From Vulcanimicrobiota bacterium (GTDB lineage Bacteria; Vulcanimicrobiota; Vulcanimicrobiia; Vulcanimicrobiales; Vulcanimicrobiaceae): DNA of 64,000 nucleotides. The number at the start of each line of letters is the position of its first letter. Within the stretch, counting starts at the first letter, position 1. The notes under the pieces are model-generated. The model was not told the DNA's origin and ran no database searches. It saw nothing but the letters and a program-made list of their open reading frames with translations. The translations under genes and the position numbers were made by a program. The stretch spans positions 13,769-77,768 of the forward strand of contig DAIDGX010000026.1 in assembly GCA_027452165.1 (NCBI GenBank), in the 5' to 3' direction. Shown here piece after piece: positions 46,592 through 46,734 of this stretch.

Positions 46592-46628
46592 AAAAAAAAC
46601 GCCGCCTCGCGTGTCGGCGAGGCGGCGT
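46592..46628 (-). terminator. Perfect intrinsic terminator located in the 5' leader of the haem-oxygenase-like gene
   Basis: The minus strand reads ACGCCGCCUCGC-CGACAC-GCGAGGCGGCGU followed by U8. The U-tract ends 29 nt upstream of the ATG at 46562. No minus-strand gene lies upstream for it to terminate. Confidence 0.75.
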
Positions 46629-46665
46629 TCGTATCGGTTGCGATGTTCGCGTTAGGACACGTGCA

Positions 46666-46734
46666 CTACCAGGGCCGACTCCGATCGAAGCGGCCGTAAT
46701 AATAGGACGTGGAAACCAGGCGGGACGCGAACAT
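46666..46734 (-). CDS. Candidate 22-codon leader peptide MFASRLVSTSYYYGRFDRSRPW with three consecutive Tyr codons
   Basis: Hand translation of the minus strand: ATG at 46734, TAT-TAT-TAC at 46704-46696, TAG at 46668-46666. It lies 37 nt upstream of the terminator stem. The SD is weak (AGAGTGGG). Confidence 0.35.
   Translation of the reverse strand: MFASRLVSTSYYYGRFDRSRPW

Follow-up and report, generated by a model that had tools for sequence, protein, structure and literature searches.

The 64,000-nucleotide (nt) stretch of Vulcanimicrobiota DNA analysed here (contig DAIDGX010000026.1, positions 13,769 to 77,768 of the forward strand; 'the window') carries on its minus strand, just ahead of an orphan oxidase gene, a leader that is most probably a ribosome-mediated transcription attenuator. 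It would sense the supply of charged tRNA-Tyr and control the one gene downstream. A 22-codon mini-open reading frame (mini-ORF) with three consecutive tyrosine codons lies within a long RNA hairpin, and is followed by an intrinsic terminator whose 5′ arm and loop can pair alternatively with the 3′ strand of that hairpin. The original prediction, made from the sequence of the window, had likened this geometry to that of the trp, phe and his leaders. That likeness has gained from comparison: the Tyr run, its frame, the terminator and the hairpin (segments 1:2) are conserved and covary in two phyla, and an antiterminator fold appears in nearly all clades once the part that a ribosome would cover is masked.

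We infer the mechanism that follows: where transcription starts, that the ORF is translated and tyrosine sensed, and likewise what the enzyme does. Transcription would start 2–4 nts before the AUG of the leader ORF, and ribosomes would load on this 5′-proximal AUG without a Shine-Dalgarno sequence. With Tyr-tRNA scarce, a ribosome would stall at UAU-UAU-UAC and so hide GGCCGCUUCG and the rest of the hairpin's 5′ strand. The stall would free the 3′ strand (GUCGGC and the sequence beyond), which starts 18–19 nts past the last Tyr codon. The freed strand would pair with the emerging terminator 5′ arm and loop (GCCGAC and the sequence upstream of it), so that the terminator is blocked and transcription reads through into the oxidase gene. 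With Tyr-tRNA ample, the ribosome would reach the stop codon and there either occlude segment 2 or leave room behind it for renewed folding of the apical hairpin; transcription would then end at 46592, at the folded 14-bp terminator. If the ORF were left untranslated, long hairpin and terminator would form together and the gene would be off.

The features concerned are as follows, in window coordinates.

46769..46774, minus strand: putative −35-like box of the leader promoter, TTGCAT (a conserved cTTGCa box in related loci)
46745..46750, minus strand: −10-like box TAGAGT, ending 10 nts before the mini-ORF ATG (TATAGT in most relatives, often with a preceding TGn)
46666..46734, minus strand: leader mini-ORF MFASRLVSTSYYYGRFDRSRPW, 22 codons plus TAG (ATG 46734, TAG 46666), without a Shine-Dalgarno sequence
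46696..46704, minus strand: candidate regulatory Tyr codons UAU UAU UAC, inside the mini-ORF
46695-46673, minus strand: GGCCG...CGGCC hairpin, directly after the Tyr codons
46686..46731, minus strand: segment 1, the 5′ strand of the long leader hairpin, codons 2–16, including the GGCCGCUUCG arm at 46695-46686 (from single-sequence folds and pair counts, helices 1–5)
46643..46683, minus strand: segment 2, the 3′ strand of the leader hairpin, with CGGAGUCGGCC at 46683-46673, ACGUG at 46662-46658 and CGCGAACAU at 46651-46643
46679-46674, minus strand: GUCGGC core of segment 2, within CGGAGUCGGCC
46611..46630, minus strand: segment 3, the terminator 5′ arm (46630-46617) and loop (46616-46611)
46618-46613, minus strand: GCCGAC in segment 3, complement of the segment 2 GUCGGC
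46592..46610, minus strand: segment 4, the terminator 3′ arm (46610-46597) and U8 tract (46599-46592)
46567..46572, minus strand: Shine-Dalgarno sequence GGAGAG of the regulated oxidase gene, read directly from the sequence
45816..46562, minus strand: regulated oxidase gene, monocistronic (ATG 46562; no conserved operon partner)

The coordinates and counts of the original prediction (mini-ORF, Tyr-Tyr-Tyr, GGCCG hairpin, 12-bp stem, U8, and the spacings given next) all agree on the minus strand. The terminator has 12 perfect pairs, ACGCCGCCUCGC/GCGAGGCGGCGU, extended to 14, and a 6-nt loop. The stop codon is 37 nts from the 12-bp stem, and the U tract 29 nts from the oxidase ATG. A scan of 16 kb (40000-56000) gave 18 terminator-like sites, of which this terminator ranked first by a wide margin. 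For the intergenic RNA of 211 nts the folding energy is −90.1 kcal/mol, with z = −3.9 relative to dinucleotide shuffles.

Distribution and coding character of the leader

Oxidase orthologs, 58–86% identical, were collected at 80 genome loci of Eremiobacterota/Vulcanimicrobiota and Melainabacteria/Obscuribacterales; 75 of these loci include upstream DNA. At all 75, a mini-ORF is followed by a terminator and then by the oxidase gene, and the mini-ORF has 19–28 codons with 3–7 Tyr, as it does in all 28 of the additional leaders found in metagenomes. Conservation of the mini-ORF, the Tyr run and the terminator ahead of orthologous genes, the comparison proposed with the original prediction, is thus complete in its ORF and terminator components. 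The terminator is 10–50 nts from the oxidase start at the 75 loci, and from the ATG to the end of the terminator there are 124–147 nts in every leader but one (locus L071, 164 nts). Substitutions on one side of the terminator stem are compensated on the other among loci (GCCGCCUCGC, GCCGCCUCACCG, CCGCCCCGGC, CCAUCUUG, GCCUUCUCG). The recurrence of ORF and terminator as a unit is far beyond chance.

A covariance model made from 32 Eremiobacterota leaders and searched over 557 kb found exactly one leader per locus, Melainabacteria included; its other matches in the 557 kb were reverse-strand terminator palindromes and one ordinary gene-end terminator only. A pattern scan of metagenome contigs gave 96 hits, among which were the 28 additional true leaders, and every one of the 28 has an oxidase-family gene 23–64 nts past its terminator. 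No leader ahead of any other gene was found in the window, at the 80 genome loci or among the 96 metagenome pattern hits. Since every copy precedes an oxidase-family gene, the leader is a dedicated cis element of this family in Eremiobacterota and Melainabacteria. [One apparent second copy in the window, at 29629-29781 on the plus strand (17.7 bits, E = 0.016), was rejected: it is a gene-end terminator (29749-29780) after the ORF 28993-29703, and has no mini-ORF.]

Selection on the mini-ORF is seen at the level of codons. The 72 distinct leaders encode 61 distinct peptides whose sole common feature is the Tyr cluster; Tyr makes up 19% of all leader-peptide residues, with TAT and TAC in a ratio of 180:140. 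The distance from the ATG to the Tyr run takes six values (15, 18, 21, 24, 27 and 30 nts), in frame every time, and the run may be interrupted, without loss of frame, by other codons (CCG, CGC and TCG among them). The stop codon is TAA or TAG, and in one metagenomic copy the start position is occupied by GTG. Retention of frame across six spacing classes, together with the ATG-to-GTG change, argues at the level of sequence for translation of an ORF that has no Shine-Dalgarno sequence. The GUCGGC motif behaves otherwise. In most Eremiobacterota it is read AGU-CGG-C (..S-R..), and in Melainabacteria and some Eremiobacterota GUC-GGC-UAG (V-G-stop). As it is read in two frames, it is conserved as RNA and not as peptide. 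A peptide conserved in its Tyr run only, with GUCGGC conserved in the RNA, is the signature to be expected of a regulatory leader peptide, not of a bioactive one.

Two departures are of note in their own right. In an Eremiobacterota clade (L057-L070; e.g. L057, 1977-2120) the leader peptide is MFAPAYLIGSYQYRSASESVEPPIPVEP, with three dispersed Tyr and no run within the same RNA architecture, and the pairing there is the doubly compensated AUCGGU/ACCGAU; sensitivity or specificity may differ in these leaders. The Melainabacteria outlier L071 (2763-2936), MSRSVNSYYYYYYRGPAGGA, has a GATA-rich insertion of ~40 nts between ORF and terminator and no obvious GUCGGC/GCCGAC pairing.

Structure of the leader RNA

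Folded alone, each leader forms one long interrupted hairpin reaching from the AUG to just past the stop codon, and then the terminator. At the base of the hairpin in the window, the start-codon region AUGUUCGCG pairs with CGCGAACAU just after the stop codon. The middle helix covaries (GCGUAC:GUACGC, CACGU:ACGUG, CACCG:CGGUG and GCAACC:GGUUGC, with AACGCC:GGCGUU in Melainabacteria). The apical hairpin comes directly after the Tyr codons, and a linker of ~20 nts then leads to the terminator. The GGCCG...CGGCC hairpin of the original prediction is therefore present, conserved and covarying, but its scope was drawn too small: the whole ORF lies within one long hairpin. RNAalifold on MAFFT alignments gave the apical hairpin and the terminator only, because the coding 5′ strand was misaligned, and was replaced by single-sequence folds and a covariance-model alignment.

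Pairs were counted in that alignment for 64 distinct leaders, with column shuffles and slid partners as controls. The alignment was fitted to the hairpin structure, which somewhat inflates these figures, and in it 84.2% of cells are paired compared with 73.7% in column shuffles and 37–50% with slid partners. Cells changed on both sides number 236, compared with 74 and 57–67 respectively, and the covariation score is 0.335, compared with 0.161 in shuffles and at most 0.09 with slid partners. In the terminator helix 96.8% of cells are paired, and 9 of its 13 pairs show compensatory changes. A search of Rfam 15 at E <= 10 (the Trp, His, Leu, Thr and Phe leaders and T-box included) gave best matches of 9.5–24.9 bits, all far below gathering scores and all due to the terminator hairpin; the highest, at 24.9 bits, has a threshold of 45.

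The predicted antiterminator and its spacing

To represent the cover of a ribosome stalled with the last Tyr codon in its A site, the RNA was masked up to +12 nts past that codon, and what was left, down to the loop of the terminator, was folded. In 19 of the 19 leaders folded, segments 2 and 3 then form a long interrupted helix, at −18 to −29 kcal/mol, so that folding of the alternative structures, also proposed with the original prediction, yields the antiterminator once the ribosome-covered part is hidden. Its pairs in the main clade are GUCGGC:GCCGAY, AGGU(GG):(CC)GCCU and UUGC:GCAA. In some Melainabacteria this helix still gives the fold of lowest energy when the 3′ arm of the terminator is included. 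Tested by dinucleotide shuffling of segment 2, the fold has a mean z of −2.9 and the duplex one of −2.5, with 17 of the 18 clade representatives scoring below −1.4.

The alignment was not fitted to the antiterminator, whose 14 core pairs are formed in 82% of cells, compared with 29–48% for slid partners. Its covariation score is 0.135, compared with at most 0.059 slid and 0.127 in shuffles. Doubly changed cells number 23, compared with 10 in shuffles, a count reached by none of 500 shuffles. Separate lineages have compensated variants of the apex helix: GUCGGC/GCCGAC, AUCGGU/ACCGAU, GGUCAG/CUGACC and GACGGC/GCUGUC (GUCGGC/GUCGAU also occurs). The antiterminator is well supported by conserved complementarity and energetics, and modestly by covariation. 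The register originally put forward for it, GAGUCGGC:GCCGCCUC, did not stand, being 73.8% paired and showing no covariation; the better-supported pairing is that of GUCGGC with GCCGAC plus further pairs of the 5′ arm.

Measured from the first base of the final Tyr codon, GUCGGC follows after 15–20 nts (mostly 18–19) in 63 of 64 leaders, which would place it immediately past the front of a ribosome stalled on Tyr. The stop codon is 1–26 nts after GUCGGC and 23–45 nts before the terminator arm; a terminating ribosome would by this position occlude segment 2, or let the apical hairpin re-form, and leave the terminator free. With only the 10–50 nts between terminator and oxidase gene there is no room for a separate promoter, so the gene would be transcribed only by read-through.

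Probable promoter and initiation

In related loci the cTTGCa box is 16–19 nts (mostly 17–18) upstream of a TGnTAtAGT −10 box. Of 75 distinct upstream sequences, 47 have the end of the −10 box 9–10 nts ahead of the ATG and 51 have the extended TG; A is favoured at −3 and −2 relative to the ATG, the presumed transcription start. A sigma-70 scan gave no score to the −35-like TTGCAT box of the window. That these boxes are the leader promoter is what we infer from their sequence and placing. Because the start is ~10 nts past a conserved −10 box and there is no Shine-Dalgarno sequence, the ORF is probably leaderless or nearly so, with a predicted start 2–4 nts before the AUG. The leader ORF of the original prediction thus stands at 75 of 75 loci, with the correction that its initiation is probably of the leaderless kind.

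The upstream neighbour is a DUF4010 membrane-protein gene on the plus strand (ATG 46769), divergent from the oxidase gene as originally claimed and separated from it by a gap of 206 nts. The TTGCAT box (46769-46774, minus strand) is the reverse complement of its start, ATGCAA, and the two control regions overlap completely. A DUF4010 neighbour is present at only 18 of the 80 loci, so the leader is independent of that gene.

Probable attenuation and its alternatives

Several observations weigh against attenuation by a Tyr-stalled ribosome. One leader, L079, is without an antiterminator signal in the shuffle test of segment 2. The percentage of antiterminator cells paired was matched by 24 of 500 column shuffles (shuffle value 81.1%) and the covariation score by 74 of 500; this weakness relative to shuffles is due to the columns being nearly invariant. 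The apex helix of 13 leaders has a C.A mismatch, and when segments 2 and 3 were combined across clades, native and swapped pairs came out too close to be discriminating (−18.8 and −16.2 kcal/mol). Judged by the E. coli consensus, the promoter boxes are weak. With no Shine-Dalgarno sequence and a predicted 2–4 nts ahead of the AUG, translation of the ORF would need leaderless-type initiation, a hypothetical mode for these phyla. The three Tyr codons of clade L057-L070 are dispersed and not a run, and L071 is an outlier. Elsewhere the enzyme is found in Tyr catabolic operons, and if it were to consume Tyr, induction at low Tyr would make little sense for it.

Could the leader instead be an untranslated structured RNA (a riboswitch, or an attenuator that binds tRNA or protein), with UAUUAUUAC as the binding site and the ORF incidental? 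The strong conservation and covariation of hairpin and terminator would suit it, as would the missing Shine-Dalgarno sequence and the burial of the AUG in the basal helix of the formed hairpin. Such an RNA, however, would leave much of the coding pattern without explanation: a start codon at a fixed place, once changed from ATG to GTG; Tyr triplets in frame throughout six spacing classes, numbering 3 to 7, with other codons inserted in frame and TAT/TAC third positions free to vary; a stop codon 19–28 codons in, every time; and a −10 box at a fixed 9–10 nts from the AUG. There was also no T-box or other Rfam match at E <= 10. We regard an untranslated RNA as improbable. Still less probable is an independent small gene or small RNA (sRNA) with its own terminator and an oxidase gene served by a separate promoter. 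The 10–50 nts from U tract to oxidase start are mostly taken by the Shine-Dalgarno sequence and hold no conserved promoter-like boxes, and the leader unit is never found away from an oxidase-family gene; these facts far outweigh the resemblance of promoter, short transcript and strong terminator to a stand-alone sRNA and the weak, sub-threshold, terminator-driven matches to Rfam sRNAs. Of the explanations considered it is the one to which we give the least credence.

The other alternatives give the peptide itself a function. A Tyr-rich peptide might serve the enzyme, either as a precursor of the ribosomally synthesized and post-translationally modified type, like PqqA, or as a sacrificial Tyr donor, with the hairpin a leaky terminator setting the ratio of peptide to enzyme. 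Peptide gene and enzyme gene are strictly paired in 103 loci, the top structural match of the enzyme is CADD with PqqC also close, CADD Tyr27 aligns with an invariant Y31, and some sources annotate relatives as PqqC. Yet only the Tyr run of the peptide is conserved, its C-terminal part switches frame between clades, and both ORF length and run position vary; there is no recognition domain or other maturation gene; orthologs in other phyla, 45–50% identical, have no such ORF; CADD Lys152 has no conserved counterpart in the enzyme, whose sequence resembles neither CADD nor PabS. A GC stem of 12–14 bp followed by U7–8 is no leaky terminator, and the conserved complementarity between segment 2 and the terminator would be left without a role. 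A functional peptide of this kind is very unlikely. A hybrid, with the mini-ORF as both sensor and substrate (the peptide being the Tyr donor, and the CADD-like enzyme cutting side chains of the peptide rather than its own), strikes us as a shade more doubtful again. If it were true, this would be a two-gene system for a peptide-derived metabolite in which the precursor mRNA doubles as attenuator. Attenuation governed by charged tRNA-Tyr remains by a wide measure the reading that we favour.

The enzyme encoded downstream

The oxidase protein has 248 amino acids. Pfam gave PF14518 only, below cut-off (E = 0.0011), NCBIfam gave no match, and a sequence search of the PDB, profile included, none either. 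Its AlphaFold model (pLDDT 87) has the seven-helix fold of the haem-oxygenase-like dimetal oxidases/oxygenases (HDO). Foldseek matched this best to CADD/CT610 (TM 0.71/0.81) and then to BesC, PqqC (TM 0.70), HrmI and UndA, at E of 1e-6 to 1e-3. The haem-oxygenase-like character originally assigned to the 45816-46562 product is borne out by model and structural search. Sequence searches found no match of the oxidase to CADD, PabS or PqqC, while CADD itself finds PabS at 1.6e-51; on the model, then, this is an HDO-fold protein and not a member of the CADD/PabS family.

A profile alignment of the oxidase with CADD has a low hhalign probability and is colinear over the full length. In this low-probability alignment the invariant H108, E163, H197, E201 and H204 correspond to the CADD ligands H88, E142, H174, D178 and H181. 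The first carboxylate of the 3-His/3-carboxylate site (E81 or E86) is ambiguous owing to an insertion. Invariant Y31 aligns with the sacrificial Tyr27 of CADD, and CADD Lys152 aligns with an invariant Leu, L174. The family is a small one: a search of 1.84 billion representatives at E <= 0.001 gave 453 clusters at 50% identity.

In the leader-bearing phyla no conserved operon partner of the oxidase gene was found, nor were homogentisate genes found near leader-bearing loci. A link to homogentisate operons appears among more distant members, in 4 of 11 lineages sampled, at the following loci.

L177, 132-6930
L178, 1-4888
L188, 1-7023
L180, 4001-7726

The order next to the Methylocaldum ortholog (45% identical) is HPPD, HmgA, FAH, maleylacetoacetate isomerase, oxidase-family gene, acetoacetyl-CoA synthetase. 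Next to the Krumholzibacteria ortholog (50% identical; L178) it is HPPD, FAH, HmgA, flavin reductase, oxidase-family gene; the flavin reductase is a neighbour in this copy. The Methylomicrobium ortholog lies between tryptophan dioxygenase-like (TDO-/IDO-like) genes adjoining a homogentisate cluster, and in one further lineage HmgA and FAH adjoin the oxidase-family gene. No Tyr-run leaders were found upstream of these distant homologs, and a literature search found no link between the haem-oxygenase-like fold and homogentisate genes.

The speculation in the original prediction that the enzyme is linked to tyrosine gains support from CADD as top structural match and from the orthologs in Tyr/Phe catabolic operons. 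Phe usually enters the homogentisate route by being hydroxylated. Given the attenuator, we tentatively suggest that the oxidase may catalyse a Tyr-forming reaction, e.g. O2- and reductant-dependent Phe hydroxylation, since this fits attenuator, catabolic operons and adjacent flavin reductase together, whereas a Tyr-consuming reaction fits badly; it is a possibility to which we would not attach more than limited confidence. An enzyme wanted when charged tRNA-Tyr is low, and with orthologs in Phe/Tyr catabolic operons, would at any rate have a testable reaction in pterin-independent Phe-to-Tyr hydroxylation, for instance. The leader would thereby supply a functional label for an orphan HDO family of ~450 clusters at 50% identity that neither Pfam nor NCBIfam assigns above threshold and for which sequence points to no relative of solved structure.

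Relation to known systems

The leaders trpL, pheL/pheA, hisL, leuL, thrL and those of ilv have an ORF with a codon run, alternative 1:2, 2:3 and 3:4 pairings and a terminator before the gene, and a stalled ribosome favours the antiterminator. The window leader shares with these enterobacterial attenuators the short ORF with its codon run, the alternative pairings and the intrinsic terminator just before the regulated gene. It differs in that it would sense Tyr, is without a Shine-Dalgarno sequence and probably leaderless, has its whole ORF inside one long hairpin, and precedes a single orphan oxidase gene, not a biosynthetic operon, in Eremiobacterota and Melainabacteria. The tyrS T-box riboswitch of Firmicutes also senses charging of tRNA-Tyr, with an antiterminator controlling an intrinsic terminator. 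In a T-box no ORF takes part: the RNA itself binds tRNA directly, with one specifier codon, a Stem I platform and the conserved T-box sequence. The likeness lies in the sensing of tRNA-Tyr charging, putative here, and in the control by terminator and antiterminator; the leader described here is ORF-based and has no T-box match. In pqq operons the pqqA gene is a small Tyr-containing ORF directly upstream.

That Tyr-codon leaders are not a standard annotated class, as remarked originally, agrees with the absence of a pure-Tyr leader from Rfam and of any precedent in the literature found on Tyr-codon leaders. The nearest reported case is the aroR leader of Corynebacterium glutamicum (Phe-Tyr-Phe), which attenuates aroF and responds to Phe, Tyr availability reportedly being without effect (PMC11802643). 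Both are leader peptides with aromatic codons including Tyr; aroR, with its one Tyr codon, controls an aromatic-pathway gene, whereas the run here is Tyr only, of 3–7 codons. In mycobacteria there are leaderless short ORFs of which some are poly-Cys attenuators of cysteine genes (bioRxiv 10.1101/834739; PMC4633059). These resemble the present leader in being 5′-terminal leaderless short ORFs with consecutive codons of one amino acid, for amino-acid-responsive attenuation; they differ in amino acid and phylum, and the present leader clearly shows a canonical intrinsic terminator with its U tract as well as a conserved antiterminator.

CADD cleaves a tyrosine side chain (PMC9522330, PMC13108848). 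With CADD and PqqC the oxidase shares the seven-helix fold at the TM scores given above, and with the pqq system the small Tyr-containing ORF directly upstream. It is unlike them in having no sequence similarity to CADD, PabS or PqqC and no conserved Lys152, and unlike PqqA/PqqC in lacking pqqB, pqqD and pqqE genes and in a peptide that is unconserved outside the Tyr run. If the mechanism holds, this would be the first clear tyrosine-specific leader-peptide attenuator, and the first leader-peptide attenuator documented in Eremiobacterota and in non-photosynthetic Cyanobacteriota (Melainabacteria), working without a Shine-Dalgarno sequence.

Gene calls and neighbouring genes

Annotation can go wrong here: the oxidase ORF is sometimes called with a start upstream of the terminator, and the leader is then hidden. 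In the window the oxidase frame is open backwards through the terminator to a GTG at 46754 (45816-46754, minus strand). Protein P0106 begins ...ADARRLFFI, the translation of terminator arm and U tract; such upstream-start gene calls mask the leader.

At its other end the oxidase gene (45816-46562, minus strand) meets a convergent fatty-acid-hydroxylase-family gene (45214-45819, plus strand), the two overlapping by 4 nts at their stop codons. Upstream of the latter is a gene for a Crp-like regulator with an N-terminal DUF2249 domain (44240-45217, plus strand). Further off, an ORF for a MoeA-family molybdopterin molybdenumtransferase (48961-50832, plus strand) has ~230 unassigned residues ahead of its MoeA_N domain; this extra N-terminal stretch may be a fused domain, or the mechanically called ORF may be over-long.

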